This document shows, piece after piece, positions 20,513 to 47,410 of a DNA stretch of 64,000 bases; position 1 is the first letter of the stretch, and each line of letters starts with the position of its first letter. The notes under the pieces are model-generated. The model made no database searches. It was not told the DNA's origin and was given only the letters and a program-made list of their open reading frames with translations. Position numbers and translations under genes: made by a program. Source of the stretch: a virus; IMG/VR virus record IMGVR_UViG_3300017748_000002, positions 32,001-96,000 of that record; one strand, written 5' to 3'.

Positions 20513-21043
20513 ATGAAAACAAGAGACGGAAGATTAGTCAATGCTCGATTTACAGATACAGATAATACGCTGATCAGAGCAGAATTTAAAAATTATGAAA
20601 ACGATGGTGCTGTAACTATTGCGCACCATGCATTTAATCCTGAAAATAAAATTGTTCATGAAATTTTACAAGAGTTTTCTCCAGAAGATCTTGAGAGAAA
20701 CTACGTAGAATTTAATAAAGAAGAATCAATTCGCGTAGCTTACTTTAACAAGTTCGCCGAAAGATTTGATGAGATTGTTGACTATCTTGATTCCGGCGTT
20801 GCACCTCAAGCACCGGCCGAAGAAAAGCCAATTAATCTTACATCAATTAAAGAAATTGGAAATAATGCTGAAGAATTCTTTAAACTGAAACTTGAAGTAT
20901 TTGAACTTGAAGAAGTAAAAAATTCAAAGAATCGCAAATGGAAAGCGAGTATGCGAAAGGCAACTACCAGCCTCGAACTTCTCTCGTTACTTTATGAGGT
21001 GTATTCGACCCTTGAAAATGAAGAAGGCGAACGTCTGGATTAA
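20513..21043 (+). CDS. Hypothetical protein
   Basis: AAGGA RBS, 176 aa, charged helical C-terminus; last gene before the enzyme island. Confidence 0.65.
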   Translation: MKTRDGRLVNARFTDTDNTLIRAEFKNYENDGAVTIAHHAFNPENKIVHEILQEFSPEDLERNYVEFNKEESIRVAYFNKFAERFDEIVDYLDSGVAPQAPAEEKPINLTSIKEIGNNAEEFFKLKLEVFELEEVKNSKNRKWKASMRKATTSLELLSLLYEVYSTLENEEGERLD

Positions 21044-21632
21044 ACTCTTCTCCAAGAAACAGGTACTCTCCAGGATAGCGCAAGTTAGCGTCTAAAATAA
21101 AGTTATTGTTATACTGAGCCCACTTATTCCAATTAGTCATCCAAGTTTCGGGTAAGAATTTAAGCTTCAGTCTTTCTTTTACAGAGTCTTCTACAAAATA
21201 CTGTTCACCATTAACGGGGCCGCAAGTGGTCCCGTTTTTGATATAATACTCCATCCAATATTCAGAATCCGACACAAATTTATCATAGATGTATTTACAA
21301 TCTTTTGGATAATACTTTTGAAATCCACCTTGTAGTCTATAATTTAATTCTGGATCTACATCATCCCACCAACAATATGCTCCAATAAACTCACCGCGTT
21401 CGATCGGATAATTTATCGCATCCATATAATCATTGATAAAGCTCATATCTATATCAATAACTACGACTGGTTCGTCGATATCTAAAGACATTGGAACTAA
21501 CTTATTCCATTGTGCTTTTCCAATAGTCTCTTCACGAATCCAATTTACGTTTGGTATTTTTGAATCAATGTACTCTTCGTATTCTGGGCCGTATTTGTCG
21601 CCAGTACGGACAGCGTAGACTCGTGGTTCCAT
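20964..21632 (-). CDS. GT-A-like glycosyltransferase
   Basis: VRTGDKYGPEY N-terminus, W.KL, DID (DxD) motif, GEQ.FV, HF near C-terminus; paralog of 25005-25697. Confidence 0.7.
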   Translation of the reverse strand: MEPRVYAVRTGDKYGPEYEEYIDSKIPNVNWIREETIGKAQWNKLVPMSLDIDEPVVVIDIDMSFINDYMDAINYPIERGEFIGAYCWWDDVDPELNYRLQGGFQKYYPKDCKYIYDKFVSDSEYWMEYYIKNGTTCGPVNGEQYFVEDSVKERLKLKFLPETWMTNWNKWAQYNNNFILDANLRYPGEYLFLGEEFNPDVRLLHFQGSNTPHKVTREVRGW

Positions 21633-22138
21633 AGTTCGTCCTTCGCATGATTGTATAGTGTGATTGGCATTTTACCACCATCCCACAAATATGAATCACA
21701 TACTTTATCGTAAGTATTATATTCTATTTCTTTGTATAAAAACTCGTCAATGCCTTTATTATATTTTACCATATAATAGTCAGGATCTTCAGCAAACTTA
21801 TCATGAATATGCGAGTGATCTCCTGACCAAGACATGATAGAACTATTCAATGGTGTATGAAAAGGCTGCCTCCACCATGCGTGAAGAAGAGTAAATTTAT
21901 CACGCCAAAGATGATCGATAGTGCCCCCAATAAAAACGTCGAGATCAAAATACAGGTATTGTCCGGTTTTAAAAAGATCAAACAGGCGAAGCTTATCATA
22001 CACACCACCGTATAAAATATCGTCAACAACAGATAGTCTATCATATTGAGCTCCTATGTTATCTAGCATATATTCTATATTGTGTATCCAATATGATTGT
22101 CCATACGCTGGTGGTGTGTTGAGTAATACTATTTCCAT
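21545..22138 (-). CDS. GT-A-like glycosyltransferase
   Basis: KL.LF, LYFDLDV (DxD), LNSSIMSW, GIDEFL motifs. Confidence 0.72.
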   Translation of the reverse strand: MEIVLLNTPPAYGQSYWIHNIEYMLDNIGAQYDRLSVVDDILYGGVYDKLRLFDLFKTGQYLYFDLDVFIGGTIDHLWRDKFTLLHAWWRQPFHTPLNSSIMSWSGDHSHIHDKFAEDPDYYMVKYNKGIDEFLYKEIEYNTYDKVCDSYLWDGGKMPITLYNHAKDELWNHESTLSVLATNTAQNTKSTLIQKYQT

Positions 22139-23052
22139 TTTTCAACCATCGTGTCGAGTTTACAATGACAAGAAATAATATCACAAGTATACGGATCAGC
22201 CGGTAATCTCCACACTGTATTAACGTTTCCAAGTGGCAAGTCAGCTCCAGCACAACATCTTCGAATAGTACCATCTGCTTCAACAGATAAGCTTTTAATA
22301 CCAGCCATACATTTCCATCCACGGAAATCTACTTCTTTGTTAGCGATCATATCAGGATGAGCTCGTTCTTCTCCATCGATATAGATTTTCCAAGGATACG
22401 GCCAGTTAACTTTTAATGGCAAGCATCTTTTCTCTCTCGATTGAGTGATCCACTTAATTTGTTCAGGACTATAATCCATTAGCTTACCATCGCCTTGAAT
22501 ACTTACTCGAGTCAATTTAGCATTCACATCAACAGTAGCTTTACTTTCTATAATTCTTTCAACTAACTTTTGAGCTCTATCGAAATTTTCAGGAGTCACT
22601 TGTAAATTAGCGACAATCTCTCCTTTTGATTGCATTGCTTGAATTACGTCAAAGAAATGATCATCGTCAGCAAACTCATAATGCCAACTGAATACAATGT
22701 AAGCATTAAGATCTTCAGGCCATTGATTCCAATATCGTAAAGTGCGACTTCCATTTGTACAAATTTCAATAATTCTATTTGGAGAGTTAATCTTTTTACA
22801 GAATTCGTCAAACTTTGGCATGAGTGTTGGTTCACCACCTAACAAGGATACTAACATATACTCATTATTCTTTTCAAAGTCGTTGAGAAGATCTACATAG
22901 TTTTCCCAGTCAGCTGGCCATCTGTTTTTTCCGCCATAATGATATGGATGACAATAGCTACACTTATAATTACACACGTCATGAAGCATGATATTTACAA
23001 TGCCGCAATCTGGATTGTTGTTTGTAATTCTCATACGATTATCTATTTCCAT
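22129..23052 (-). CDS. Radical SAM enzyme with C-terminal twitch-like Cys domain (subfamily B)
   Basis: CNYKCSYC, GGEPT, TNGSR, W.C.AG...DG.I.RC...C....C.C. Confidence 0.9.
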   Translation of the reverse strand: MEIDNRMRITNNNPDCGIVNIMLHDVCNYKCSYCHPYHYGGKNRWPADWENYVDLLNDFEKNNEYMLVSLLGGEPTLMPKFDEFCKKINSPNRIIEICTNGSRTLRYWNQWPEDLNAYIVFSWHYEFADDDHFFDVIQAMQSKGEIVANLQVTPENFDRAQKLVERIIESKATVDVNAKLTRVSIQGDGKLMDYSPEQIKWITQSREKRCLPLKVNWPYPWKIYIDGEERAHPDMIANKEVDFRGWKCMAGIKSLSVEADGTIRRCCAGADLPLGNVNTVWRLPADPYTCDIISCHCKLDTMVEKWK

Positions 23053-23930
23053 TTAGTTAGTATAGTTTCAAGCCGACAGGTACAAGGTTTATGAGTATCA
23101 CAAATGATCGGATCTTTCGGAAGCTCAAAATACGTATTAATATTTCCTAAGCTACCACCTACTTGTTTTGTGCATCGCCATATTTCGCCATTGGTGTGTA
23201 CATAAATTCTATCAAGGCCAGCATTACATTTCCACCCTTGAAACCAATAGTTTTCTGATGCTATCATTTCTGATAATTTGCCGGCACTACACTCGAGTGG
23301 TAAAACAAAGTTTGGACCTGATTGAGTATTATTCCAATAATGAGATTGAATCCATTTTTTCTGTTCATCAGTATATTCAAAATAGTCAGGTCCGTCGATC
23401 ACGACTCGAGTAAACTTTGGAATTGCTTCTACTCTTAATTTTTTTTCTACTATTCTATGGTATAGTGCTTGTCCTCTTTCGTAATTATCTGGAGTCAATA
23501 AGAATGTAGCCACACACATAGCTTTGTCTTGCATGATCTCGAGAACATCAAGGTAATGGTCGTCATCTGCTTCTTCATGGTGCCAACTAAAGAGAGCAGT
23601 TGCTGTATGTTTTGGTAAGCTTTCCCAGTACCGCTTTGTTCTACTTCCATTAGTAGCGTATTCAATGTACGTACGATCATCACTAATATAATCTATAAAG
23701 TCATGAAACTTTGGCCATAAAGTTGGCTCACCACCGAGAATCTGAACATACACATATTTCTTTTTTTCTTTGATCTCGTCAATTAGATCAAGGTATCCAT
23801 CCCACTTAGTAGGCCAACGGTACGACCCATCGCGATGTTCATCACTACAATAGCTACAATTAAAATTGCAGACATTATGGACAAACAACGAGACAATACA
23901 GCAATCTGGATTTGAGTTAATTATTTCCAT
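23043..23930 (-). CDS. Radical SAM enzyme with C-terminal twitch-like Cys domain (subfamily B)
   Basis: CNFNCSYC, GGEPT, TNGSR, WKCNAG...NG.I.RC...C.....C.C; tandem paralog of 22129-23052. Confidence 0.9.
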   Translation of the reverse strand: MEIINSNPDCCIVSLFVHNVCNFNCSYCSDEHRDGSYRWPTKWDGYLDLIDEIKEKKKYVYVQILGGEPTLWPKFHDFIDYISDDRTYIEYATNGSRTKRYWESLPKHTATALFSWHHEEADDDHYLDVLEIMQDKAMCVATFLLTPDNYERGQALYHRIVEKKLRVEAIPKFTRVVIDGPDYFEYTDEQKKWIQSHYWNNTQSGPNFVLPLECSAGKLSEMIASENYWFQGWKCNAGLDRIYVHTNGEIWRCTKQVGGSLGNINTYFELPKDPIICDTHKPCTCRLETILTKWK

Positions 23931-24556
23931 TTGCCGAGTATCATGTACCTCGTATATTGATCTGGAGTACCTTCATTAAATCTCTTCTTACCACCATAGA
24001 GTTCTTTGACATCAGCCTGAGCTGCGAGCTCTTGACCGGTCTTGACACAGTTAATATGGTCTGGTTCGTTTGTCTTGTCATTTGACTGTAGAGCTAAAAG
24101 AGTACGCTCAGGTTCTTCATAATACTCTTTTGTTGTGTTCATATTCCACATATGCTCACATGAAGTATTTATTACTAAATGTGTACGTCTTTTTTCTGTA
24201 TAAGTAAAGTAGTCCTGATTAAAAATACGTACGTTGTCATAACCAAAAAGATCACAATACTTCCAAATCATTTTACACGCCCATGAGTCAATCTCAAAAA
24301 TATCGATCTCACGAATTTGAATATTCCACTCATCCATTAGAAATTGAATAAGAGGAAACCCATACCATCCACCAATGATTTCTACACGAAACTTTCCGTT
24401 CTCATCTCTCGGAATCTGAACGTTTGGTAAACCTTCATAAACCAGCCACTCTTTACACTTAATCTGGTTTGGATGCAAAGAATCTATCCAACGATCTAAC
24501 ATAAATGAATGATTGTGACGAAGCCATTTCATCATTTCAGCATATTCAAGTTGCAT
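23921..24556 (-). CDS. Class I SAM-dependent methyltransferase-like protein
   Basis: IIGGWYG glycine loop, FEID acidic motif II, LVINTSCEHM, QSN, RYMILG; GGAGGG RBS. Confidence 0.7.
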   Translation of the reverse strand: MQLEYAEMMKWLRHNHSFMLDRWIDSLHPNQIKCKEWLVYEGLPNVQIPRDENGKFRVEIIGGWYGFPLIQFLMDEWNIQIREIDIFEIDSWACKMIWKYCDLFGYDNVRIFNQDYFTYTEKRRTHLVINTSCEHMWNMNTTKEYYEEPERTLLALQSNDKTNEPDHINCVKTGQELAAQADVKELYGGKKRFNEGTPDQYTRYMILGKWK

Positions 24557-24586
24557 ATACTACCCTCCGGATTAAATTCTTACTTT

Positions 24587-24616
24587 ATTATACACCATTT
24601 ATGTTCTCCCGTAAAC
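24587..24616 (-). promoter_or_regulatory. Sigma70-type (T4 early-like) promoter
   Basis: Minus strand reads GTTTACG-17 nt-TATAAT (hexamer TTTACG 24615-24610, TATAAT 24592-24587), 30 nt upstream of the methyltransferase ATG. Confidence 0.6.
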
Positions 24617-25012
24617 AATAAAATGAGTTTTCTGCTCACTTATTATTTCAAACGAATCGTATATTTCTTTGACATTATACCATCCAACTAGATCTTCGAC
24701 AGATTCAACTGGACAACAATCTCCGTTATGCTTTTCGTTATCACCGATGAGTAGTACATCTCCTTCGAGTGTAATAGGATATGTTTTTTCGCAGTTAGCA
24801 TGAACAACTAAATCAGCATTAAGATCTACGTCGTCAAACACGAAATCCTTGTTAATAAAGATAGGGCTATTCATGAATTTTGGATCGTAGTCAATTCCTT
24901 TTACGTTGATACCACATGATGCTAACTTATGTAGAAAATCTTTTCGAGCATTGCATGCTAAGAATATGATAGAATCATAGTTAAAGTATATCGATTCAAA
25001 TTTATCAATCAT
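24599..25012 (-). CDS. Small methyltransferase-like protein (divergent paralog of 23921-24556)
   Basis: GIDYDP, DLVVHANCEKTYP similar to LVINTSCEHM, GDN....DCCPV.S.EDL similar to SND....DHINCV....EL; likely start ATG 25012. Confidence 0.5.
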   Translation of the reverse strand: MIDKFESIYFNYDSIIFLACNARKDFLHKLASCGINVKGIDYDPKFMNSPIFINKDFVFDDVDLNADLVVHANCEKTYPITLEGDVLLIGDNEKHNGDCCPVESVEDLVGWYNVKEIYDSFEIISEQKTHFIVYGRT

Positions 25013-25697
25013 AGCTTTTCCATAATTTAACTGTATCTTTGTCAGCCTCGTCGAGCTCGTATGACTCCTCCACGATACCTTTGTTCCTCGCAATATGGGA
25101 TGTATTGAAAATAGAAATCTTTCCTTTTAACTCGAATCCTTGCCGATTATAATTTGTCACAAACCCTTCATCCCAGAACTTGAGACGATTATTTCTATGG
25201 TGTTGATAAAAGAGATATTTATCTAGAGACTTATATGTCCACTCAATCTTCTTCCAATTGTCATTAGTAAACTGAATAAGCCACTCAGGATTGTTGAACT
25301 TTACAAAAGAACTATTGACATGACAAGAACCGCCTTTACCATACCAAAGTAAAGATCGCTCGCGATAATCATTCCAATAGTTCCAAATCATGGTAAAATC
25401 GTTATCATTTTCAATGTCTGTAATATCGTCATGAATTAGCACGTCTAAATCAAGCCACACACCCTTCTCGTGTTTTTCCATAAGAATCAACTTCTCATAG
25501 GTAAACACACGATCCGTATCAAATTTTCTTAATGATTTGATATTTTTTACCTTTACTTCTTCGCGTAACATGTTATAATTATCTGTATAGCATGTTAATG
25601 TAAAGGGTTTTTTATAGTGCTTTTTGAGGCCGCCGTACAGCCGATTTACGTATTCGGGACCGTACTTGTCGCCCCATTTCAGTGTATAGAAATCCAT
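25005..25697 (-). CDS. GT-A-like glycosyltransferase
   Basis: LKWGDKYGPEYVNRLY..L, TCYTD, WLDLDV (DxD), VNSS; start ATG 25697 with GAGG RBS. Confidence 0.78.
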   Translation of the reverse strand: MDFYTLKWGDKYGPEYVNRLYGGLKKHYKKPFTLTCYTDNYNMLREEVKVKNIKSLRKFDTDRVFTYEKLILMEKHEKGVWLDLDVLIHDDITDIENDNDFTMIWNYWNDYRERSLLWYGKGGSCHVNSSFVKFNNPEWLIQFTNDNWKKIEWTYKSLDKYLFYQHHRNNRLKFWDEGFVTNYNRQGFELKGKISIFNTSHIARNKGIVEESYELDEADKDTVKLWKSYD

Positions 25698-25705
25698 TAT
25701 AAATA
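25698..25705 (+). promoter_or_regulatory. T4-type late promoter TATAAATA at the head of the rightward arm of the enzyme island
   Basis: Exact motif 32 nt upstream of the first plus-strand radical SAM gene. Confidence 0.75.
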
Positions 25706-25737
25706 CCTCGTGTAACACTATATATAAAGGTTTCATT

Positions 25738-27162
25738 ATGAGCGTAGATGATCAGTTCCCCTCCTCCACTTTTTGTGCTTTACCGTGGATGCATCTTTCT
25801 ACTAGACCAAATGGTCATATGAGAGTATGTTGTACTGCGAATGCTTCAGGCGTCGCAGTAAACGCGAGCTCTACCAATAAGACTGTTTCAGAGTCTGGTG
25901 TACTTCGTAATGATGACGGTAAACCATCAAATCTCGCCACCACCGGTTTGATGGAATCGTGGAATAACGAATATATGCGTGGCGTTAGAAGGATGATGTT
26001 AAATGGAGAACAACCAAGCTCCTGTACAAAATGTTATAAAGAAGAAGAAGCTGGCCACATTTCTAAAAGAATCTGGGAAACTCGTAAGTGGATCAAAGAC
26101 CAAGGCGGGATTGAACCAATTATCGAAGGCACAGCAGAAGATGGATCAGTGGCTCCAAGAATACGCTATATCGACCTTCGCCTTGGCAGTAAGTGTCAGC
26201 TTGCATGCGTTATGTGCTCTCCTCATGATTCAAGTAATTGGGTAAAAGAACATAAAAAGATTTACCCTACACTTGAAAACAACAATCTGAAAAAGTCAAT
26301 GGCTTGGGAAAAAGAATCCGGCAAGTTAGCTTGGTCAGGTGGATCCTACAATTGGCATAAGAAGAATCCAAAGTTCTGGGATGAACTATACGAAACACTT
26401 CCGCATCTACGTCAATTGTACTTTGCTGGTGGTGAGCCACTCATTATGGATGAGCACTACATGTTGCTTGAGAAATGTATTGAAGATGGATTAGCACCAG
26501 ACATTGAATTACGTTATAACTCAAATGGTATTGAGTGGCGTGATGACTTGTTTGATCTATGGTCAAAGTTTCGTAATGTTATCTTTCACTTCAGTGTAGA
26601 TGACATTGAGATGAGAAATCATTTCATTCGGTATCCATCTAACTGGGAAGTTATTACAGGTTCAATTCAAAAGATGGATGATTATCCACACGGCAATCTT
26701 ACATTGACAACAGCCACAACAATTATGGCACTTAATATTATGTACATGCCAGAATTTATTAAATGGAAACTTGAATCAAACTTTAAGTTACTCAACAAAT
26801 GGCCAAATGGTGCCGGCATTTTCAATTGTCATCTTGCTTATTGGCCACCACAACTCAACGTAAAAGTTTTGCCTGAATGGTTTAAACAAGAAGTCAGACA
26901 GAAATATGAAGAAGAGTTGTATCCATATCTAGAAGAAAACTGGCAAAAATGCACAGGAGTAGAAGCTACTGACTATGATACATGGCGCAATTCCGAATAT
27001 GGAATCAATAGACTAGAAGGACTACTTACTTTTATGGAAGCTGAAGATTGGTCTGAAAGATTACCTGAAACTGCTGAATGGTGTTATAAAGTAGGAAAAG
27101 AAAGATTCCTTGATTTCAATGAAGTCTTTCCAGATCTCGATTGGTTGGAGTGGTATAAATGA
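25738..27162 (+). CDS. Radical SAM enzyme with N-terminal twitch domain (subfamily A)
   Basis: FCALPW..L..RPNG..RVCC...WN...R..ML.GE..SCTKCY.EE before CQLACVMC; AGGEPL. Confidence 0.92.
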   Translation: MSVDDQFPSSTFCALPWMHLSTRPNGHMRVCCTANASGVAVNASSTNKTVSESGVLRNDDGKPSNLATTGLMESWNNEYMRGVRRMMLNGEQPSSCTKCYKEEEAGHISKRIWETRKWIKDQGGIEPIIEGTAEDGSVAPRIRYIDLRLGSKCQLACVMCSPHDSSNWVKEHKKIYPTLENNNLKKSMAWEKESGKLAWSGGSYNWHKKNPKFWDELYETLPHLRQLYFAGGEPLIMDEHYMLLEKCIEDGLAPDIELRYNSNGIEWRDDLFDLWSKFRNVIFHFSVDDIEMRNHFIRYPSNWEVITGSIQKMDDYPHGNLTLTTATTIMALNIMYMPEFIKWKLESNFKLLNKWPNGAGIFNCHLAYWPPQLNVKVLPEWFKQEVRQKYEEELYPYLEENWQKCTGVEATDYDTWRNSEYGINRLEGLLTFMEAEDWSERLPETAEWCYKVGKERFLDFNEVFPDLDWLEWYK

Positions 27163-39373: not shown

Positions 39374-40308
39374 AAGTAGCTCAATTACAAGCCGATATTA
39401 CTACGTATTGTAATAGCCATTGTGGTGGATGTATACGAAATATTGATGGAGGAGAAACGTGTGTTGATCTAGTACATCTTCCACTTAATATCTTCAGAAA
39501 AATAAACTTTAGTGATATTGAAGTAGTATATTTTAATGGAGCTTATGGCGATTTTACAATGCACCCTGATGGTATTCAATTTATTGATTCTATTCCTGAG
39601 CACGTTGTCATTGATATTTCAACCAATGGTGGCACAAGAAATAAAGGATGGTGGCAGCTGCTGGCTAAAACACTCAGTAAATTCACAGCAAGAGTTAGCT
39701 TTGCAATCGATGGTCTATCCACAAATCATTTATACAGACGTGGAGTCGACACTGAAAAAGTTTTAGATAATGCAGAAGCATTTATTCAAGCTGGAGGAAG
39801 AGCCAGATGGAAGTATATTATGTTCGAACACAATAAGCATGAAATTGAAACTGCAAGTCAATTAGCTCGCGATATTGGATTCGAATCATTCGTAATGGTT
39901 GAATCATACAACGAAGAAATATATCAAAAGAAATATAAAAACTTTTCAGAAAGCGTTGCAAAAAGAATTCCGCTCGATGAATCGTATAATTGGAGATCAA
40001 GAAGTCTAGAATATCCTGAAGACTACGAAGATAACCACCCGTGTCGTTGGAGAAATAAAAGACGAGCTCAACTTGATGCGTGGGGTAATATATGGCAATG
40101 TTGTTACATGCCTTCGATAGCCACTCAAAAAGATACAAAAATGTTTGAAGAATTAAGCATGTTAAAGCTTGAAAATAATTTGCATTCAGATGAATACGAC
40201 AACATTCTTCAAAGTAGTTTCTTTGCTGAATTATTCGATGAACCTCTAGAAGCTTGCAAGAAATGTGAAGAGTACGATAATGAAAAAGTTAATTTTTCAA
40301 TTCTTTAA
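39364..40308 (+). CDS. Radical SAM enzyme with C-terminal SPASM/twitch-like domain (subfamily C)
   Basis: CNSHCGGC, GAYGD, TNGG, AIDGL, FEHNKHEIE, WQCCY, C.KC. Confidence 0.88.
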   Translation: MDMKVAQLQADITTYCNSHCGGCIRNIDGGETCVDLVHLPLNIFRKINFSDIEVVYFNGAYGDFTMHPDGIQFIDSIPEHVVIDISTNGGTRNKGWWQLLAKTLSKFTARVSFAIDGLSTNHLYRRGVDTEKVLDNAEAFIQAGGRARWKYIMFEHNKHEIETASQLARDIGFESFVMVESYNEEIYQKKYKNFSESVAKRIPLDESYNWRSRSLEYPEDYEDNHPCRWRNKRRAQLDAWGNIWQCCYMPSIATQKDTKMFEELSMLKLENNLHSDEYDNILQSSFFAELFDEPLEACKKCEEYDNEKVNFSIL

Positions 40309-40927
40309 AGAACAGCCTTTGTTTCATGGTGATGAACGAGATACACTCGGGGTGCAGATTGTTCCGTATTCTATTCGTACTGTTTCAAATTATGCTCAAC
40401 GAATAGGTGCTGATTATAAGTTTGTCTCAAATAGAAAATTTAACCATTTACCAAGTGTACATTCTGAAAAGCTTCAATGTCTTATGGAAACAGGATATGA
40501 CAAAGTCTTAGCTCTTGACACAGACATAATTATTCCACCAGATACAGAGATAGATATATTTAATGAATATCGGCATTCACAGCTTGCTCTTAGAGGTTCG
40601 CCAAAACATTTAGGTTTAATGTCACGAATAAACGGTGGTGTTGTTTTATGGGATAAACAAACTATTGAGTTAGTCCAACCTATGTTAAACGAACTTCTTC
40701 AGTTAAACACAAAAAGAGATTTAATGTGGCATGACGAACATTTTATTCAGAGTTGTTGGATGGAATACGATATTGGTGTGACTGGACTCAAATGGGAATG
40801 GAATCGAAACGGTGAAGAGTATCATGACTGGAAACAACCGGCGTACTTTATACACTATGGCGCTGTAACAGAAGCTCGGCTTGCTTTTGATAAAAAACAT
40901 TGGGATGACAGACTATGCGGATTTTAG
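40280..40927 (+). CDS. GT-A-like glycosyltransferase (GT8/GT34-like)
   Basis: YAQRIGADY, LALDTDI (DxD), INGGVVL, HDE, WN, FIHY. Confidence 0.68.
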   Translation: MKKLIFQFFKEQPLFHGDERDTLGVQIVPYSIRTVSNYAQRIGADYKFVSNRKFNHLPSVHSEKLQCLMETGYDKVLALDTDIIIPPDTEIDIFNEYRHSQLALRGSPKHLGLMSRINGGVVLWDKQTIELVQPMLNELLQLNTKRDLMWHDEHFIQSCWMEYDIGVTGLKWEWNRNGEEYHDWKQPAYFIHYGAVTEARLAFDKKHWDDRLCGF

Positions 40928-42237
40928 GTATTAGTGAAGGTTCACACGACGCAGCATGGACATTGGTTGAAGCAGCTACAATTGTAGAAGCTCATCATGT
41001 TGAGAGACATACTCGAGTAAAAAATGATAAGTGGTTAAACAAAGATCTTCTTCCAGAAGCTGACATTGTTGTAGGACACGAGAATAAGTATCGTGTTCGT
41101 AGTCGAAACGCAATTGCTGGTCAAGAACATCAACAAGAAAATATCGAAACAGATACTGACTATAACCACTACGACACTCATGCATGGGCTGGCTGGTCTA
41201 CTTCTTCATTTGAAGACTGTGATATTCTTTGTGTCGATGCTATTGGTGAAATGGAGACTGGCGCTGCATACACTATGCGAGATCGAGTGTTGACCAAAAC
41301 ATGGGAAATGAAATACCCAAAAAGTATTGGTCTAGCGTATTCTGCCGTGACTGCTGCTCTTGGTTATAAGCCTATGGAAGAAGAATATATTGTCATGGGT
41401 TTAGCTGCCTATGGCGAACCACTATATGACTTCGACTATCTTATGGATACCAATTGTCATAAAGGAATTGAACTGCCTAACGGAAGACCAGAAGATATTG
41501 CTGCATCAATTCAAGTATTCTATGAAAAGCAATTATTGAATCTTGTTAAAGAGTATTGCCATCACGAAAATCTAGTACTGATGGGTGGCTGCGCTTTGAA
41601 TTGTGTAGCCAATTCTAGAATCGAAGGAAAGAATATATGGATCATGCCAAATCCCGGAGATGCCGGTTCATCTCTTGGAGCAGTAGCTGCTTTTTACGAA
41701 GATAAATTAGATTGGGAGGGACCTTATCTTGGAACTAATATCGAAAATGAAATTAATCCTCGTGAGATTGCTCGATATATTGCTGAGCACGGTGTGTGTG
41801 GCGTGGCTAACGGTCGTGCTGAGTTTGGCCCTCGTGCCCTTGGTAATCGTAGCCTTCTTGCTGACCCCCGTCGCGATGTTAAAGACACGGTCAACGAAAT
41901 CAAAAGAAGACAAAAATTTAGACCCTTTGCACCGGCCATCTTGGAAGAATGTGCCGAGCAGTTTTTTGAAGGACCAATGAATGAGTACATGCAATTTGTG
42001 GCAAAAGCTAAACATGATTATAAGTCCGTCACTCATGTGGATGGGACGGCAAGAGTACAAATAGTCAGACAAAAGACTTATGGATCTCAGATTCGAAAGA
42101 TCCTTGAAGAATTTACTGATATTACTGGTTGTCCGATGTTATTGAATACAAGTCTCAATATTAAAGGAGAACCAATGGTTGATAGTTGGGAACACGCAGA
42201 AGAATGGATGAAAAAATACAACGTAAACGTCTTTTAA
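40915..42237 (+). CDS. O-carbamoyltransferase (NodU/CmcH/TobZ family)
   Basis: ILGISEG.HDAA, DAIGE, EY.VMGLAAYG, GGCALNCVAN, GDAGSSLGA, EFGPRALGNRSLLADP, FRPFAP, HVDGTARVQ, LLNTSLN.KGEP.V. Confidence 0.95.
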   Translation: MRILGISEGSHDAAWTLVEAATIVEAHHVERHTRVKNDKWLNKDLLPEADIVVGHENKYRVRSRNAIAGQEHQQENIETDTDYNHYDTHAWAGWSTSSFEDCDILCVDAIGEMETGAAYTMRDRVLTKTWEMKYPKSIGLAYSAVTAALGYKPMEEEYIVMGLAAYGEPLYDFDYLMDTNCHKGIELPNGRPEDIAASIQVFYEKQLLNLVKEYCHHENLVLMGGCALNCVANSRIEGKNIWIMPNPGDAGSSLGAVAAFYEDKLDWEGPYLGTNIENEINPREIARYIAEHGVCGVANGRAEFGPRALGNRSLLADPRRDVKDTVNEIKRRQKFRPFAPAILEECAEQFFEGPMNEYMQFVAKAKHDYKSVTHVDGTARVQIVRQKTYGSQIRKILEEFTDITGCPMLLNTSLNIKGEPMVDSWEHAEEWMKKYNVNVF

Positions 42238-43031
42238 TTACCGGCGGATGTAGCCACTCAGATAGCAACTATAGTGTTTATAAAAGCCGTAATATCAAGA
42301 CGTGGCCAGAACTCGTAGCTAGTCAATTAAACTGTGATTTAATAAATGTTGCTAAAAAGGGCATGGGAAATGACTATATCAGCGGTGCCTTAATGGATGC
42401 TGTGATGGATAATAAAGATCGTGATATTGTAGTTATGATCTTGTGGACATCCGGTGATAGGTGCAATCTATTCGACGTCGGTACGTTATGGCATCAAAGA
42501 GAAACGCTAGCATATCATGAAAAACGAAAATTAGAACCCGGACCTGATGGACCTGTTCCGGGAGAAGCCGATGCATCGTTTGAAGATGCTGTTTGGCCAT
42601 ATAGTGATGATTGGTTTTATATTGATGAAAAAACCTTAAATCATAATTTAAGATCTATATGGACTATTGATCATCTTTGTAGGACGTTAAGAATACCTAT
42701 ATATCATAGACAAGCATATTCATTAGTTAATTCTATCACGTACACCGGCATGTATCATTATGAAGGCCAATACACCGATCTAGAAATAAAAATGAATCAG
42801 CTCGAGAGGCAGCATAAACTTCTTCAAGCAGTACCGAAGAGTAGATGGTACATTGATTATCGTGATTGGCGTAATGGATTTAAAATTGGTAATATGCCAC
42901 AGATGTGGATTAACGATGGAACGAATGGAGAACCTGTTGATGGCCATCCAAATCAAAGAGGGCATGAATGGATAGCAAAAGACTTCTTATCACTGCAGGA
43001 TGCAGCTTTACAGAACCAACGTTCTATTTAG
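42204..43031 (+). CDS. SGNH-like esterase or acyltransferase (array copy 1)
   Basis: LLITGGCSHS, WPELVA, NVAKKGMGND, DRDIVVMILWT, DGHPNQRGH; likely start ATG 42204. Confidence 0.72.
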   Translation: MDEKIQRKRLLITGGCSHSDSNYSVYKSRNIKTWPELVASQLNCDLINVAKKGMGNDYISGALMDAVMDNKDRDIVVMILWTSGDRCNLFDVGTLWHQRETLAYHEKRKLEPGPDGPVPGEADASFEDAVWPYSDDWFYIDEKTLNHNLRSIWTIDHLCRTLRIPIYHRQAYSLVNSITYTGMYHYEGQYTDLEIKMNQLERQHKLLQAVPKSRWYIDYRDWRNGFKIGNMPQMWINDGTNGEPVDGHPNQRGHEWIAKDFLSLQDAALQNQRSI

Positions 43032-43729
43032 AAAAAAATATCCTTCCTTGGCCGAATATTATTGCTGATGGAGTAGGATTTGATATTTTAAATGTTGGCA
43101 GAGGTGGAGCAGGACAAGACTATATTTCAAATGCGGTTATCGATGCAGTGATGGAAAATCAAGATCGAGATCCAATTGTCATGGTGCTTTGGTCAGAGTT
43201 TTCTAGAATTAATCTATATGATTTTTGTACAAAATGGGTATCAACAAATAGCAGAGTTCTTGATACAATTCCTAAGCCTCCATCTGAAAATATGAATCCA
43301 CATGTGGGTATGACTATGAGTGAAAAAGATATTATGATAGCAAGAAATCAATTTAGAATCATGTGGAGAACTAAGAAATTTGTTGAGGATCTAGGCTTTG
43401 AGTTTTTTGCAAAGATAGGTATTAGCAGCCTCTATCAAATCATGCAGATAGCTGATGGTGGAGACAGAGAAAAACGAGCTATTCACTATGGAATGCTGAG
43501 AAAAAACATTTTAAAAGATTTTTACTTTCAGAATTCTGGTATCACTATGAAAGAACTTGAAGAAGGTTTACCGCAGCATCCAAGAGAAACTGATCCTCAA
43601 TCTTTTCTAGACACCGGAATATTTTTAGAGTGTCGACACCCAAATCAGGCAGGACACGAAATCATTGCTGATGCTTTTCTAGGAAAGTATTTAAAAGCAC
43701 ACGAACCACCGGTATTCATCTATGACTAA
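42968..43729 (+). CDS. SGNH-like esterase or acyltransferase (array copy 2)
   Basis: LLITAGCSFT, NVGRGGAGQD, DRDPIVMVLWS, CRHPNQAGH. Confidence 0.72.
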   Translation: MDSKRLLITAGCSFTEPTFYLEKNILPWPNIIADGVGFDILNVGRGGAGQDYISNAVIDAVMENQDRDPIVMVLWSEFSRINLYDFCTKWVSTNSRVLDTIPKPPSENMNPHVGMTMSEKDIMIARNQFRIMWRTKKFVEDLGFEFFAKIGISSLYQIMQIADGGDREKRAIHYGMLRKNILKDFYFQNSGITMKELEEGLPQHPRETDPQSFLDTGIFLECRHPNQAGHEIIADAFLGKYLKAHEPPVFIYD

Positions 43730-44639
43730 AAAACTTCTTATCACTGGCGGATGTAGTAATACTACGCAGAAATATTGGGCCTATACTGAAAAGTCAATTA
43801 TCGTTTGGCCAACAATTGTAGCACAAGATATGGACTGGGATCTATTAAATCTTGGAATTGCTGGTTCATCTAATGATAGTATTGAAAATTCTGTGTATGA
43901 CGCTGTTTTAGAGAATCAAGATAGAGACATTGTTGTAATGATGTTCTGGACAGAACCGTGTAGAGGCACATGGTGGGATCTAGATCATTATCAATTACAC
44001 GGTACACGAGACAGATATACTCTTTGGTCTGGTGTTGAAAAGAAGTATCCAGAAATCGATCATGTTGAATTTTGTCGAAGATTTGACCAGCTTGATGATT
44101 GGAGCTTTTTAGCTTGGTTGAAAGACAGAAGTTACTTTCCAAACAATTGGGCAAAAGAACCATTTGACCAACATCTCAAATACATGTATCTAATTCAAGA
44201 TATTATGAAAAGACATTTATTGTCATTAGCATATAACGACGACAGGATGTTAGAAGTCGATGCACAGATGGTAGACTTCAGTCTCAGATCTATGGTTCGT
44301 CTAAAAGGTTTTCTCGATTCACTAAAAATACCAACCGTTCATAAGTATAGTTTATCAATGACAGAAACTATGCCTTGGTCGTATCCTCATTGGAAAGATG
44401 ATCCATTAGACATTAAAGAAAAAGCAATGATGATGAGAAGAAAAGAAGGTCTTCAACGGCATTGTAGTAAACATCCACGTATTAAAGAAATGGGAATGTC
44501 TCGCAAAGATTGGCAAAATGGTTGGTGCGATTTTAATAAGAGAGAACAAGGATATTTACTTGACTGCGGTCACCCTAATCAAAAAGGACAGAACCTTATA
44601 GCTGATGAGTTTATCGAATGCGTAAACTCCTTATTGTAG
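43722..44639 (+). CDS. SGNH-like esterase or acyltransferase (array copy 3)
   Basis: LLITGGCSNT, NLGIAGSSND, DRDIVVMMFWT, CGHPNQKGQ. Confidence 0.72.
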   Translation: MTKKLLITGGCSNTTQKYWAYTEKSIIVWPTIVAQDMDWDLLNLGIAGSSNDSIENSVYDAVLENQDRDIVVMMFWTEPCRGTWWDLDHYQLHGTRDRYTLWSGVEKKYPEIDHVEFCRRFDQLDDWSFLAWLKDRSYFPNNWAKEPFDQHLKYMYLIQDIMKRHLLSLAYNDDRMLEVDAQMVDFSLRSMVRLKGFLDSLKIPTVHKYSLSMTETMPWSYPHWKDDPLDIKEKAMMMRRKEGLQRHCSKHPRIKEMGMSRKDWQNGWCDFNKREQGYLLDCGHPNQKGQNLIADEFIECVNSLL

Positions 44640-45505
44640 GCGGAGACAGTAATACAGATTCTACGTATACAGAAAACGTAAAGAACAACATTTTTTCATG
44701 GCCACATTCTGTCGCGGACAAAATGGATTGGGACTTGCTAAACGTTGCTCAAATGGGACGTTCTAATGAGTCAATAGAGAATAGAGTTTATGACGCTGTT
44801 GTAGAGAATCAAGACAGAGATATTGTCGTGATGGTTTTATGGTCTCAATCGATCAGGCAATCACCGTTTGATCTTTTTAATATTATATTTACAAACGACA
44901 AAAGACAATTCAACGAATTTCAGACTTCTAAATTTCTAACAAATTTTCCGGGAATGGATATTGAAAAGTGGGAAGATATTCTTTTTATTGAAAATAATAA
45001 TTTAAGCTATAATAAATGGATTGAAACAAGAGAATATTTGCCAAAGTCTGCAGATTATAATCAGCCATATGATTTACAGACTAAACATACGTATATACTA
45101 GAACAAATACTTAAATTCAAATTTCAAGATACCGATGATGTGTATCATCTTGATGAAAAGATTTTACACTTCAATCTCAGATCTATGAGAAGATTAAAAC
45201 TTTTTCTTGACAGCTTAGGTATTCGTAGTATATTTAAGTCTGGGCTTTCAGTGACTCGTAGCATTCCAGGAATGTTTTCTCCTTGGATTCAAGATCATGA
45301 TCTAAAGCAAAAAACACTCAATATAAAAAGGCTAAATAGATTGAATAGTGTTTGTAAAGAAAAGTTAGATTTTGAATTAAGTGATTGGGAAGAAGGATTA
45401 ATCTGGGCTTTGAGTAAGCACGGTCATGTGATGGAATGTAACCATCCAACTCAAACTGGTCATGAAATAATTGCTAAGGAATTTATAAAATGCGCAAACT
45501 ATTAA
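44618..45505 (+). CDS. SGNH-like esterase or acyltransferase (array copy 4)
   Basis: LLIVGGDSNT, NVAQMGRSNE, DRDIVVMVLWS, CNHPTQTGH. Confidence 0.72.
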   Translation: MRKLLIVGGDSNTDSTYTENVKNNIFSWPHSVADKMDWDLLNVAQMGRSNESIENRVYDAVVENQDRDIVVMVLWSQSIRQSPFDLFNIIFTNDKRQFNEFQTSKFLTNFPGMDIEKWEDILFIENNNLSYNKWIETREYLPKSADYNQPYDLQTKHTYILEQILKFKFQDTDDVYHLDEKILHFNLRSMRRLKLFLDSLGIRSIFKSGLSVTRSIPGMFSPWIQDHDLKQKTLNIKRLNRLNSVCKEKLDFELSDWEEGLIWALSKHGHVMECNHPTQTGHEIIAKEFIKCANY

Positions 45506-46317
45506 TTGTTGGCGGATGTAGTTGGTCTAATCCGAACGAAGAATGCTATCACGTTGCTGGGATCGATAAGATCTGGCCTGAAATGGTAGCAGAATTTCTT
45601 GACATGGATTTAATTAACGTATCAGAAGGTGGAGCTGGAAACGATTATATTTACGGTCAGACATTAGATGCTATCGAAGAAAACAAAAATCGTGATATTG
45701 TCGTTATGGCTCTTTGGTCGCAGGCAATCCGAATGGTGCCATTTGATTTACCGATCGGTCAATTTACATTTGGTGTTCATACTCCAATGTTGGTACCGCC
45801 TATTGGTCCGCTCAAAGAAGATATTCAAGAAAGATTTAGAGATCTTTTTTGGTTACACGTTTATGATCAGGATGCTCCGATGCATCTTCAATTAACAAAG
45901 GAAGAATTCTGGACAAAAATTGCGAATGTTTCTCTTCGAAATATTTACATGCTTGATCACTACTGTAAAACAAGAGATATTCCTATTCTTCATCACCGTG
46001 CTCTTCATACTCTTGCTGGCATTGAATGGTTATTGAAAAAGCAAATCAATTTTCAATTGAGAAAACAAGTCTTTGATGCTTGCCAAAACAATCAATATTA
46101 TCAGAAGATTCAAAAATTTAAAAATATCGTAGGACATCCAAATTTCTTTGAACCGGGTTCTAGTTGTTTTGATCTCTACGAAAAATATTACATTACACCA
46201 CAAGAAAAACACCCAAATACACAAGGGCATATGTTAATTGCTAACAGTTTTGTAAACAAATATATAGAACTATACGAAGAAAGATCTACATCAGAACCGA
46301 GTTTTGTCTATGAATGA
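45490..46317 (+). CDS. SGNH-like esterase or acyltransferase (array copy 5)
   Basis: LLIVGGCSWS, NVSEGGAGND, NRDIVVMALWS, EKHPNTQGH. Confidence 0.72.
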   Translation: MRKLLIVGGCSWSNPNEECYHVAGIDKIWPEMVAEFLDMDLINVSEGGAGNDYIYGQTLDAIEENKNRDIVVMALWSQAIRMVPFDLPIGQFTFGVHTPMLVPPIGPLKEDIQERFRDLFWLHVYDQDAPMHLQLTKEEFWTKIANVSLRNIYMLDHYCKTRDIPILHHRALHTLAGIEWLLKKQINFQLRKQVFDACQNNQYYQKIQKFKNIVGHPNFFEPGSSCFDLYEKYYITPQEKHPNTQGHMLIANSFVNKYIELYEERSTSEPSFVYE

Positions 46318-47410
46318 TTTGAAATGGAGTCAATACGACTTCACAAAAATACCTTTTAATGATATTGTAAGTGTCGGCCAACGCACGATGATGTATCGTG
46401 ACTTGTTTACAGTGAGTTGGTTGCTCGGTCGATTCTGTAATTATTCTTGTTCATATTGTTGGCCATACGCATCAAGTCGTGAAAAAGACCATAGGCCAAT
46501 TGATTTGATTCTTATGACAATTGACGAGATTAAAAGACAATCTCGCAAGAATGAATATAATTCTTTTCATTTTAGTTTTAGTGGCGGTGAACCTACGTTC
46601 CATCCACAATATTTAGAAATTATGGAATACCTTGCTGATGATGTTCCTAACTGTAACTATCATTCAGTCCATATGACTTCTAATATTTCTCGTAAGATGA
46701 AGTGGTTTGAAGAATATGCTAAAATATGTTCGCGGTTTAATCGATCAAGTATCACAGCTTCATGCCATAGAGAACATGTTAATACCCAAGAAAAAGTTGC
46801 AGAGTTCGCTGACAAGCTTGAATACTGCCAATCACAAGACATCCAAGTAACTATTAACCAAGTGATGCTACCAGACAAATTTGAGCAGTGTTGGGAAGAC
46901 GCACTATATTTCCACGAAAGAGGTATCAATGTTACTCTTAAACCTCAGTCTGATCCTACTGCCAGTTTTATTGTTGATGGATATACTGAATCAATGCTTG
47001 AAAAATTACGTAACGGCATGCCTCAAAGAGGATTTACCGACATCAAAAAACAAATTACCAGACCGAGACCGAACGTCGAATTAGATCTTCGTTATGAAAC
47101 AACTGGTGTTCCACAACATATGCAAGTTGAACTTGAAGATTCAAAAGGACAAAAATATTATATGGATCAAGCTGAACGGTTCAACACATTCGAGTTTAAT
47201 AAATTTGAAGGTTGGAATTGTGAATCCGGATATAGATCTATTATAATCAGAGAACCGGACGGATCTATAAAAAGATCTTACTCGTGTAATGATGAGCCAC
47301 TTGGTTATATTCAATCTGGGTTTAAATTATTCGATAAACCAATGCCGTGTATCACAAAAACATGTGTTTCTTCTGCAGATTCTAAGATCCCAAAGAAGAA
47401 AATTGTATAA
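46310..47410 (+). CDS. Radical SAM enzyme with C-terminal twitch-like domain (subfamily B)
   Basis: CNYSCSYC, SGGEPT, W.C.SG...DG.I.RSYSC...PC....CVSSAD; ATG 46310. Confidence 0.9.
   Translation: MNDLKWSQYDFTKIPFNDIVSVGQRTMMYRDLFTVSWLLGRFCNYSCSYCWPYASSREKDHRPIDLILMTIDEIKRQSRKNEYNSFHFSFSGGEPTFHPQYLEIMEYLADDVPNCNYHSVHMTSNISRKMKWFEEYAKICSRFNRSSITASCHREHVNTQEKVAEFADKLEYCQSQDIQVTINQVMLPDKFEQCWEDALYFHERGINVTLKPQSDPTASFIVDGYTESMLEKLRNGMPQRGFTDIKKQITRPRPNVELDLRYETTGVPQHMQVELEDSKGQKYYMDQAERFNTFEFNKFEGWNCESGYRSIIIREPDGSIKRSYSCNDEPLGYIQSGFKLFDKPMPCITKTCVSSADSKIPKKKIV

Follow-up and report, generated by a model that had tools for sequence, protein, structure and literature searches.

A 30-Gene Island Rich in Radical SAM Enzymes within the Structural Module of a Marine T4-Like Phage: A Candidate Sugar-Tailoring Pathway

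Introduction

In some mycobacteriophages, phage glycosyltransferases glycosylate virion proteins; the enzymes are cytoplasmic and their genes lie beside structural genes. Such systems comprise one or two glycosyltransferases and are not known to include radical S-adenosylmethionine (SAM), carbamoyl, SGNH or pyridoxal phosphate (PLP) tailoring enzymes. Radical SAM enzymes of the twitch type, i.e., BtrN and HygY, act on sugars or cyclitols in aminoglycoside pathways. Here, we study a 26-kb, 30-gene island of tailoring enzymes at positions 20964-47410 of a 64,000-nucleotide (nt) stretch of viral DNA. This stretch, called the window in the following, covers positions 32,001 to 96,000 of the IMG/VR virus record IMGVR_UViG_3300017748_000002 (123,332 bp, 73% complete according to CheckV); the island takes up about a fifth of the recovered 123-kb contig. 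One of its genes, g24, belongs to the same O-carbamoyltransferase family as enzymes of aminoglycoside and aminocoumarin pathways (TobZ, NovN), whereas the radical SAM likeness to these pathways is at superfamily level only, and the island has no scaffold synthase and lies in a phage context.

T4-like phages that infect streamlined marine bacteria rank with the sea's most abundant viruses. For pelagimyophages, a host recognition cluster has been described (Zaragoza-Solas et al. 2020, PMC7029224), i.e., a large hypervariable region that follows VrlC, precedes the neck genes and carries glycosyltransferases and radical SAM cassettes. Place and content, as given in the text of that paper, are those of the present island. 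The same text reads the glycosyltransferases as modifiers of the host O-chain, provides gene categories only and leaves function untested; it does not describe a conserved core, an N-terminal-twitch family, an SGNH array or a carbamoyltransferase. A marine T4-like genome, TARA_ERS488813_N000010, encodes 12 radical SAM genes and an A-type Fe-S carrier (Nishimura et al. 2017, PMC5332604). Its radical SAM count matches that of our island and an A-type carrier gene is present on our contig as well, while the text of that paper gives only the count of Fe-S-related genes. A first-pass annotation of the window had stated that no described pathway has such an enzyme complement. This holds for function, since our search of article texts found no functional study of such islands, but the gene set as such is already in print, as the texts of PMC7029224 and PMC5332604 show. 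Particular to the present island are its 12 radical SAM genes among 30, a six-copy SGNH array with G-C-S variants, a carbamoyltransferase and a strictly linked Asp-Ser fibre.

A cultured counterpart is the Pelagibacter phage Mosig (EXVC030M, MT647606.1), which carries a two-armed tailoring block (at ~55.3-73.4 kb) in an equivalent position, with VrlC on one side and the tail fibre/neck genes on the other. The depositors' annotation lists three 'MoaA-like' genes, a UDP-Ara4N-type aminotransferase, a carbamoyltransferase, methyltransferases, an epimerase, nitroreductase-like genes and oxygenases. This block is smaller than ours, with three annotated 'MoaA-like' radical SAM genes compared to 12, and its oxygenases, nitroreductase-like genes and DegT-type aminotransferase are not found in the present island. 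BLASTP identifies Mosig homologues for g02 (47% identity, E 9e-35), g24 (32%, E 5e-45), g25 (25%, E 2.5e-16), g05 (32%, E 2e-13) and g01 (25%, E 1e-7) as well as for g20, g12, g10 and the fibre-assembly gene that follows the island. Phage C48C1, whose portal is the closest match, shows nothing but structural genes at the island position.

The reading that we favour, if tentatively, is that the island forms a hypervariable cytoplasmic pathway for building and editing a sugar (glycan) within such a 'host recognition cluster', the product of which would most probably be placed on neighbouring fibre or baseplate proteins.

Results

Island Layout and Genomic Context

Based on the listing of open reading frames (ORFs), the island consists of exactly 30 ORFs (g01 to g30) in two divergent arms, i.e., a leftward arm of seven ORFs on the minus strand (20964-25736) and a rightward arm of 23 ORFs on the plus strand (25738-47410). 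The 29 ORF junctions comprise 27 overlaps and only two gaps (42 nt and 1 nt). PHROG scans place the island within a T4-type structural module. On its upstream side, they identify baseplate wedge proteins of gp6 and gp8 type, a pair of VrlC-like proteins and one fibre-like protein; downstream follow a fibre-assembly protein, two fibre-like proteins, gp13, gp14, gp15, TerL, sheath, tube, portal and scaffold. The fibre-assembly (chaperone-like) protein is encoded by the first gene past the island (47466..47816, + strand) and matches phrog_3304 (L-shaped tail fiber protein assembly, E 6.8e-16). ORF listing and PHROG scans thus agree with the initial description of a two-armed, near gap-free island of 30 genes between baseplate/fibre and fibre/neck genes, and we consider the block a real, dense and co-oriented set of tailoring enzymes. 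Within the leftward arm, the overlaps at the junctions g02/g03, g03/g04 and g04/g05 (21545-24556, - strand) each measure exactly 10 nt.

The portal protein is 66.5% identical to that of Phage C48C1 and 50-54% identical to those of cyanophages, OM43 phage Melnitz and Pelagibacter phage Mosig. Mosig and C48C1 are classified under Kyanoviridae in their records, and the phage studied here is a marine T4-like, Kyanoviridae-like phage.

None of the 30 island proteins shows a 19-residue window with a mean Kyte-Doolittle value of at least 1.6; a bacterial membrane ORF used as control reaches 2.47. Scans with Pfam, PHROG and NCBIfam revealed no match to a lipid-carrier transferase, flippase, polymerase or ligase family for any of the 30. 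That is, the 30 proteins include no membrane-embedded step of a lipid-carrier pathway (O-antigen/capsule type), for which host components could serve.

Late-Promoter Motif

A T4 late promoter had been proposed to head the 23-gene arm. The respective T4-type motif TATAAATA (25698-25705, + strand) lies within the 40-nt divergent spacer that separates g08 (25738) from the probable g07 start (25697), 32 nt ahead of the g08 ATG. Over the whole window, we find 14 copies of TATAAATA compared to 5.8 expected ones; 13 of the 14 are on the plus strand, mostly just ahead of structural genes, and another copy (47406-47413) is located near the fibre-assembly gene. The placement recurs in relatives. The exact motif is found at most 150 nt ahead of the g08 orthologue in four related loci (L003, L007, L009, L010) and the variant NATAAATA in two more (L001, L011), where the background density of the motif in those relatives' loci is 0.046 per kb. 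Both observations corroborate the late-promoter motif. For the leftward arm, a scan of 20000-27000 for sigma-70-type sites was uninformative (35 sites vs. 26.5 +/- 4.4 expected).

Radical SAM Enzymes

The CxxxCxxC motif is present in all 12 genes that had been annotated as radical SAM enzymes. Each of them also matches Pfam Radical_SAM (PF04055), 11 with at least the cut-off of 29.5 bits. The remaining one, g11, scores 27.9 bits and is thus under the Pfam cut-off, yet it obtains 292.7 bits on the NCBIfam model NF033640. Motif and Pfam scores place the proteins in the radical SAM superfamily, such that the annotated number of 12 stands.

NF033640 (N_Twi_rSAM) uses a cut-off of 170 bits for the whole protein and divides the 12 enzymes clearly. 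Members are g08 (25738..27162; 399.9 bits), which is a core gene as detailed below, g09 (27159..28481; 373.2 bits), g11 (29380..30615), g14 (32018..33205; 208.6 bits) and g16 (33854..35035; 222.0 bits), all on the plus strand, while the other seven proteins score 24-52 bits and are non-members. In the five members, a Cys-rich auxiliary (twitch) domain precedes the CxxxCxxC core, i.e., it is located N-terminally. They match the whole model, and their domain order is that known for the family. NF033640 is a catalogue entry without an assigned substrate, and our literature search found no paper on it; in the present island, five diverged paralogues with a mutual identity of only 22-34% are combined in one operon.

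The other seven enzymes have Cys-rich C-terminal parts. Four of them form one blastp cluster, namely g03 (22129..23052, - strand; SPASM/twitch-like; Pfam 44.2 bits; CNYKCSYC at residue 27; 13 Cys), its paralogue g04 (23043..23930, - strand; 47.7 bits; CNFNCSYC at residue 21), g10 (28478..29428, + strand; 52.5 bits; g30 type) and g30 (46304..47410, + strand; 54.9 bits), the most conserved core gene. At the clustering threshold used, the blastp cluster of g20 (37330..38316, + strand; 39.6 bits; CQAMCPMC at residue 15), the core gene g21 (38309..39373, + strand; 46.9 bits) and g22 (39364..40308, + strand; 32.8 bits; SPASM match E 0.0056) also contains the five N-terminal-twitch genes; g20 and g22 are of the g21 type.

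Within these seven enzymes, CxxxCxxC begins at residues 15-45, so that they do not have an N-terminal recognition domain. Considering the five N-terminal twitch domains as well, we find no space for such domains throughout, as judged from motif positions and twitch location. Moreover, the two gaps of 42 and 1 nt leave no room for a precursor gene of a peptide that is synthesized ribosomally and then modified post-translationally (RiPP).

An A-type Fe-S carrier gene is encoded on the same record (G000:C1:108381-108644; Pfam Fe-S_biosyn 38.1 bits vs. 26.3), ~12 kb past the right end of the window. This agrees with the statement in print that genes for Fe-S assembly are found as well in marine T4-like genomes with many radical SAM genes.

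Glycosyltransferase- and SGNH-Like Genes

Five genes had been called GT-A-like, three of which are backed by family or fold matches. The GT-A-like glycosyltransferases g02 (21545..22138, - strand; E 5.2e-5) and g07 (25005..25736, - strand; E 4.2e-7) match the glycosyltransferase family phrog_1962, and both show a DxD motif. For g23 (40265..40927, + strand), the nearest ESM Atlas clusters are viral nucleotide-diphospho-sugar transferases, of whose members 11-57% are assigned to GT8 and 48-84% to GT34 (TM 0.83-0.84), which suggests a glycosyltransferase of GT-A fold (GT8/GT34-like). The remaining two are weak calls based on weak similarity and DxD only. Here, g01 (20964..21632, - strand) has GDKYGPEY and DxD motifs in common with g07 and no Pfam, PHROG or NCBIfam match, and g19 (36557..37357, + strand) shows only a BLASTP match to g23 (E 6e-4) across the DTD motif. 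Orthologues of g01 in L001 and L003 are 66-70% identical. The true start of g07 is likely 25697, where the ATG yields MDFYTLKWGDKYG, which resembles g01.

DxD is invariant across the alignment of all five sequences. The profile of g01/g02/g07/g19/g23 matches GT8 proteins in the PDB with E-values of 0.05-0.9 only, and a comparison of the g01/g02/g07 profile with that of g19/g23 detected no relation (probability 1.3).

The six SGNH-like genes belong to one family, in agreement with their annotation. All are on the plus strand, i.e., g17 (35025..35900), which aligns with g25-g29 and matches Lipase_GDSL_2 with E 0.002 (under the cut-off), and the paralogues g25 (42186..43031), g26 (42968..43729), g27 (43722..44639), g28 (44618..45505) and g29 (45490..46317). 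Ser, Gly and His are invariant in 30 aligned sequences. G-D-S is kept in g17 and g28 and replaced by G-C-S in the other four copies (g25, g26, g27, g29); the acidic residue near His varies, and no copy reaches a Pfam cut-off. An AlphaFold2 (AF2) model of g29 (pLDDT 88.7) is matched by Foldseek to TesA (E 2.6e-5), acetyl-xylan esterases and GDSL lipases, which supports the SGNH fold. Judging from their residues, hydrolase and transferase roles appear indistinguishable for this family.

Carbamoyl-, Methyl- and Other Enzymes

The carbamoyltransferase call for g24 (40915..42237, + strand) is well supported. Both Pfam domains are found (E 5e-49 and 4e-36) above their cut-offs, i.e., Carbam_trans_C with 166.5 bits (cut-off 27) and Carbam_trans_N with 125.5 bits (cut-off 24), which places the protein in the NodU/CmcH family of O-carbamoyltransferases. 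Its relatives in the PDB are GdmN (E 7e-42), NovN (E 1e-41) and TobZ (E 3e-23). On the NodU equivalog model it scores 135 bits vs. a cut-off of 1000, i.e., g24 belongs to the family without being NodU itself. With 440 amino acids (aa), it is short compared to the 576-702 aa of the solved relatives.

Three methyltransferases had been proposed, of which two stand. An FkbM-family methyltransferase is encoded by g15 (33189..33857, + strand), which exceeds the cut-offs of both Pfam Methyltransf_21 (43.7 bits vs. 22.7) and TIGR01444 (42.1 vs. 37.7). The core gene g05 (23921..24556, - strand) encodes a protein with the fold of class I SAM methyltransferases; Foldseek relates its AF2 model (pLDDT 87.3) to many SAM methyltransferases (E ~2e-7, TM 0.5-0.62), while a PDB profile search found nothing below E 0.07. 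The third, g06 (24599..25093, - strand), is a conserved protein with orthologues in L001, L003 and L011, and its assignment as methyltransferase-like is unsupported by Pfam, PHROGs, NCBIfam and PDB, none of which gave a match.

Concerning the PLP enzyme, g12 (30612..31517, + strand) is a weak call for a fold-type-I aminotransferase-like protein. Its profile matches the aminotransferase 3if2 (E 2e-4), and S184-L-S-K187, which contains the SxSK lysine, and D159 are invariant in a family found in 30 loci. Similarly, g18 (35872..36618, + strand) contains the SGGADS (SGGxDS) motif of a PP-loop ATPase and a C-terminal Cys cluster, whereas its likeness to QueC, the name under which it had been annotated, is weak (24.5 bits vs. 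cut-off 22, with no single stretch passing). ATP_bind_3 is matched with 20.1 bits, under the cut-off of 27. The g18 family is present in 50 loci. Finally, the annotation of g13 (31492..32034, + strand) as 2-oxoglutarate-Fe(II)-like was not confirmed by Pfam, PHROG or NCBIfam; the Atlas neighbours of the protein are viral hypotheticals, with DUF6445 in 27% of the members of one cluster.

Spread among Viruses

We scanned IMG/VR with a pattern derived from the five N-terminal-twitch paralogues. Among the 599 candidate stretches listed, 597 encode a relative, such that relatives are present in at least 597 contigs; the best 80 loci were kept. ORFs were labelled by the best-matching island gene within 10 kb of the g08 orthologue; since this flank misses genes further right, all per-gene counts are lower bounds. 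Given this, g21-like genes are present in at least 70 of the 80 viral loci, followed by g09 (59), g05 (56), g30 (37), g18 (34), g11 (33), g12 (18) and g24 (10), and SGNH and glycosyltransferase genes are nearly never found within the 10 kb. The loci show a recurring frame of a g05-like, a g21-like and a g08-like gene, a variable run of radical SAM paralogues and a g30-like gene (54-78% identity). That is, the conserved core of the island is g05, g21, g08 and g30. When clustering all ORFs of 138 loci and the present genome, the cluster of N-terminal-twitch and g21-like proteins comprises 697 ORFs, that of g30 153 ORFs and that of g05 202 ORFs in 95 loci. In one large-phage locus (L040:3919-7095), a g05-like region is found inside a 1058-aa protein, the remainder of which has no family match.

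Completeness estimates of 38-51% for five long contigs (137-182 kb) with the frame point to genomes of ~360 kb; some core carriers are thus probably phages of ~360 kb. A portal gene (32-33% identity) was found in three of the five, in one of them ~46 kb from the island, and the baseplate gp6 query matched one of the five weakly. A fibre-like ORF, tested on L038 (phrog_19602, E 3e-10), is a member of a family that is located at the left edge in 10 of the 80 viral loci. For L038, Pfam scans of ten ORFs gave one sub-threshold GDSL match and nothing more, and PHROG scans of eight of its ORFs and two others gave the fibre-like match for one ORF only. Furthermore, we compared 19 unlabelled ORF clusters via hhalign with the island profiles (glycosyltransferase, SGNH, g05, g06, g12, g13, g15, g18). 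Only clusters 14 (glycosyltransferase), 32 and 37 (SGNH) and 11 (g13-like) reached a probability of at least 50%.

The SGNH family is rare and confined to 15 loci, eight of which (L081-L088) are close relatives of the present island with 88-91% identity in g30. Their gene order begins with radical SAM genes, followed by g24, an SGNH tract of two to four copies, g30, the fibre-assembly gene, the Asp-Ser fibre, a second fibre, gp13 and gp14. In the window as well as in all eight, the island is located between VrlC/fibre and fibre/neck genes. Gene content differs among relatives. The nearest one has neither g23 nor g28 and a diverged gene in the place of g19, and L001 and L003 do not have g03 and g04. 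These differences match the gradual gain and loss of cassettes that the text of PMC7029224 describes for pelagimyophage host recognition clusters.

In phage sequence records the island is without a close match. A megablast search with 24.9 kb of it against 50,697 phage records found none. A tblastn search of g08 against the same records found four, all with <31% identity and <50% coverage, such that no member of the N-terminal-twitch family is shown in phage isolates; Mosig is not among the four.

Related islands also hold enzymes of other types. One cluster of nine ORFs in eight loci (e.g., L058:11398-12858) encodes a B12-binding radical SAM protein (Pfam B12-binding and Radical_SAM), and SDR-like, amidinotransferase-like and nitroreductase-like genes occur that are absent from the window.

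Counterparts in Bdellovibrionota

A scan of prokaryotes (one genome per species) with the alignment of g08 orthologues resulted in 43 loci, of which 32 are from metagenome-assembled genomes of Bdellovibrionota type according to the record titles. Some of the latter are on contigs of 0.25-3 Mb. Identities range from 48-53% for the g08-like and from 54-63% for the g30-like genes. Counted on the gene map, g21- and g30-like genes accompany the g08-like gene in 28 of the 32 loci, and g05-, g09-, g12- and g24-like genes are frequent. In L110, the neighbours of the cluster are rpoD, dnaG, yqeY and a gene for a tadA-like deaminase, which makes the cluster chromosomal. In loci of the Bacteriovoracaceae type, GT2 glycosyltransferase genes directly follow the core (Pfam E ~1e-21 for representatives of two clusters with 6 and 7 loci). 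The core chemistry is therefore not specific to virions, as these bacterial chromosomal copies show. Of the remaining 11 loci, L096-L100 might be phage contigs that were mis-binned, given their phage-type gene content and low G+C.

In four Bdellovibrionales loci (L104, L105, L110, L115), a strongly hydrophobic ORF of 120-129 aa (maximal Kyte-Doolittle value 2.47) lies between the g08-like and the g24-like gene and always ahead of the carbamoyltransferase. It may resemble the small membrane partners of SxtI-type carbamoyltransferases.

Asp-Ser-Rich Fibre

The first-pass annotation had named an Asp-Ser (DS) motif as acceptor of the modification. The candidate target is a 1097-aa fibre-like protein (47826..51119, + strand) with partial tblastn matches to tail fibre proteins of cyanophages. 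It contains 40 DS compared to 10.6 expected, while SD is found 7 times and DT (Asp-Thr) never, with 9.9 expected. Its orthologues in all eight close relatives have 41-47 DS vs. 10-14 expected. A DS excess with p<1e-8 is seen for just these nine orthologous fibres out of the 2288 ORFs from all loci that have a length of 150 aa or more. Their alignment contains 79 DS columns, 23 of which are common to all nine; of the 40 DS sites of the reference, 27-38 are shared at 47-73% identity, i.e., DS sites are kept better than average residues. Variable segments of the fibres carry lineage-specific DS in addition. Many DS sites are located at the start of internal repeat units (e.g., ..YDSxTGVF..) or within a hydrophobic-D-S-x-(Y/W)-V motif, and a structural role is thus a sufficient explanation.

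We also compared DS content between gene groups, which were picked by position. Ten peripheral baseplate/fibre ORFs (10347-21043, 47466-47816, 51159-52502) show a 1.84-fold DS enrichment (51 vs. 27.7, p 5e-5) and a DT ratio of 0.68. DS ratios are 0.97 for core structural genes, 0.82 for island enzymes and 0.77 for the rest of the genome. In another T4-like lineage (L004:122-3861 and L005:3657-8430; g08 orthologue 69%), several consecutive ORFs near gp14/gp15-like genes have 9-11 DS vs. 2.0-4.7 expected; since SD is similarly high (7-11), this appears to be a D/S-rich composition rather than a DS-specific bias.

The co-occurrence of island and DS enrichment had been suggested as a check. DS fibre and island type do co-occur in 9/9 genomes, which all belong to one clade, and our scan found no independent case. 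We found no DS-fibre homologue with an island-free upstream region; the respective scan provided 15 loci, 13 with an extended fibre homologue. Eight of these 13 are relatives already known, and the other five begin at the fibre or close to it. An island of this type without DS fibre was found in Mosig only, the fibres of which are not DS-rich (DS 4 vs. 7.8, 3 vs. 3.4 and 4 vs. 2.7 expected). The island-free C48C1 shows a mild DS excess in one protein of 1568 aa (31 vs. 17.7, p 0.003). Within 10 kb of the core, neither the 80 viral nor the 32 Bdellovibrionota loci hold a strongly DS-rich ORF. The correlation thus leans, though not decisively, against a general link between DS and island and is confined to one clade, and the proposed role of Asp-Ser as acceptor gains no independent support.

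Discussion

Judged by gene families and gene order, the tailoring of a sugar or glycan appears to be the best-supported reading of the island. It is suggested by the presence of transferase, carbamoyl-, methyl-, acyl- and amino-group enzymes, by the GT2 genes that neighbour the core in bacteria and by the sugar-type annotations of the Mosig block. A sugar is preferred over a peptide pathway because neither a precursor gene nor recognition domains are found. We further consider a virion target plausible, since it agrees with the late-promoter motif, with fibre genes as neighbours in several lineages and with a set of enzymes that are all soluble and include no membrane step.

In the following scheme, all chemical steps are inferred, as are the identity of the substrate as a sugar and, most of all, the target. 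The 23-gene rightward arm would be transcribed late, from TATAAATA at 25698 and together with the virion genes. The glycosyltransferase-like proteins g23 and g19 together with g01, g02 and g07 of the leftward arm may transfer sugars from host nucleotide-sugars to an acceptor. The twelve radical SAM enzymes, with the auxiliary domain N-terminal in five and C-terminal in seven, would edit these sugars by hydrogen abstraction, where oxidation to ketones, epimerisation, deoxygenation, C-methylation and C-C bond formation are possible edits. A keto intermediate could be aminated by g12 and a carboxylate activated by g18; g24 would carbamoylate a hydroxyl, g15 and g05 would methylate, and the six SGNH paralogues may add or remove acyl groups. 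The product would most probably decorate adjacent virion proteins, i.e., those of the fibre or baseplate.

Several observations weigh against this scheme. On the side of the chemistry, none of the five glycosyltransferase-like genes reaches a Pfam glycosyltransferase cut-off and two (g01, g19) are weak calls, and no gene of nucleotide-sugar synthesis, such as a dehydratase or nucleotidyltransferase, emerged from the family scans of the 30 ORFs. SPASM/twitch radical SAM enzymes mostly modify peptides or proteins, the weak NCBIfam and PDB matches of the island's enzymes are mostly to peptide maturases (PapB, SkfB, cyclopropylglycine synthase 8vpo), and no island enzyme has an experimentally tested relative closer than superfamily level. 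Concerning the target, the core is found on bacterial chromosomes, where there is no virion, so a virion target does not follow from the core; in a ~180-kb fragment of a larger phage, core and portal gene are ~46 kb apart. No late-promoter motif is found for the leftward arm. Finally, the position beside fibre genes is weak evidence, because a hypervariable region may tolerate insertions.

Some of these points lead to other explanations. If nucleotide-sugars or glycans made or edited by its enzymes were exported by host machinery, the island could remodel the host envelope, i.e., change O-chain or capsule and, e.g., block superinfection. This is how the text of PMC7029224 reads GT8-rich clusters, and both g23 and the profile of the five glycosyltransferase-like proteins show GT8-like similarity. 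The bacterial core adjoins GT2 genes and is combined in some loci with a carbamoyltransferase plus small membrane protein, and gene content varies among close relatives as it does in O-antigen loci. We nevertheless hold envelope remodelling to be unlikely, since the 30 proteins include none with a membrane segment and none that matches a lipid-carrier transferase, flippase, polymerase or ligase, and since a surface change seems of little use to a soon-lysing cell, given that the long arm is under a late promoter. The peptide-maturase matches would instead suit the direct modification of protein side chains without any glycan, where SPASM/twitch enzymes would epimerise, cross-link or oxidise fibre residues, e.g., Asp-Ser, like anaerobic sulfatase or RiPP maturases do, and the other enzymes finish the adduct. 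All 12 enzymes carry auxiliary-cluster Cys motifs that are typical of this peptide- and protein-modifying class, and the adjacent downstream fibre with its 40 DS and 0 DT keeps 27-38 of these 40 sites at 47-73% identity. On the other hand, much of the DS content stems from the internal repeat units of the fibre, 80 viral and 32 Bdellovibrionota loci have the core but no strongly DS-rich ORF within 10 kb, recognition domain and precursor gene are both missing, and glycosyltransferases, a carbamoyltransferase and SGNH proteins are atypical of such pathways; we therefore rate side-chain modification as improbable, more so than envelope remodelling.

Twitch radical SAM enzymes are known from aminoglycoside pathways, and the carbamoyltransferase relatives TobZ, NovN and GdmN act on natural products. 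The island might thus produce an unattached, diffusible small molecule, e.g., an aminoglycoside- or cyclitol-like metabolite that acts on host or competitors; the text of a cyanophage paper reads a comparable gene trio as 'antibiotic synthesis genes' (PMC12801897). Pfam scans and hydrophobicity identified neither a scaffold-forming enzyme nor an exporter, five glycosyltransferase-like genes suggest a polymer or conjugate, and position and timing of the island match those of virion genes, which makes a small molecule slightly less probable again than the modification of side chains. Least of all do we expect a hypermodification of DNA or nucleotides by which phage bases would be decorated against restriction. 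The QueC-like PP-loop protein g18 and the radical SAM enzymes do recall 7-deazaguanine pathways, phage glycosyltransferases often act on DNA according to the text of PMC7029224, and a thymidylate-synthase-family gene is found elsewhere on the contig. However, the 123-kb contig encodes no TGT/DpdA and no PTPS/QueD and thus no 7-deazaguanine system, although at 73% completeness such absence is not proof. In addition, the QueC match of g18 is marginal, the island is located in the late structural module and not among replication genes, and the core sits beside GT2 genes on Bdellovibrionota chromosomes, such that we consider this explanation very improbable.

Extending the favoured reading of sugar tailoring, abundant ocean phages and predatory Bdellovibrionota might share an as yet undescribed radical-SAM 'sugar editing' toolkit (g05, g21, g08, g30), used in the present clade for a hypervariable glycan code on tail fibres at Asp-Ser sites. 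Such a glycan, in addition to the fibre sequence, would help to set the host range or shield the fibre and could involve sugar chemistries not yet known. We regard this extension as doubtful, behind envelope remodelling but ahead of side-chain modification. Should virions carry the island's product, sequence-based host prediction misses a chemical layer of host recognition in the ocean; if virions are undecorated, a family of hundreds of radical SAM enzymes still awaits its substrate. The problem is tractable since the core of g05, g21, g08 and g30 is defined, the chromosomal core of Bdellovibrionota lies beside GT2 genes, and Mosig on Pelagibacter HTCC1062 carries a smaller relative.

As a minor observation on the same record, the thymidylate-synthase-family match lies outside the window (G000:C1:114820-115341, E 1e-15) and contains one in-frame TAA within the match.

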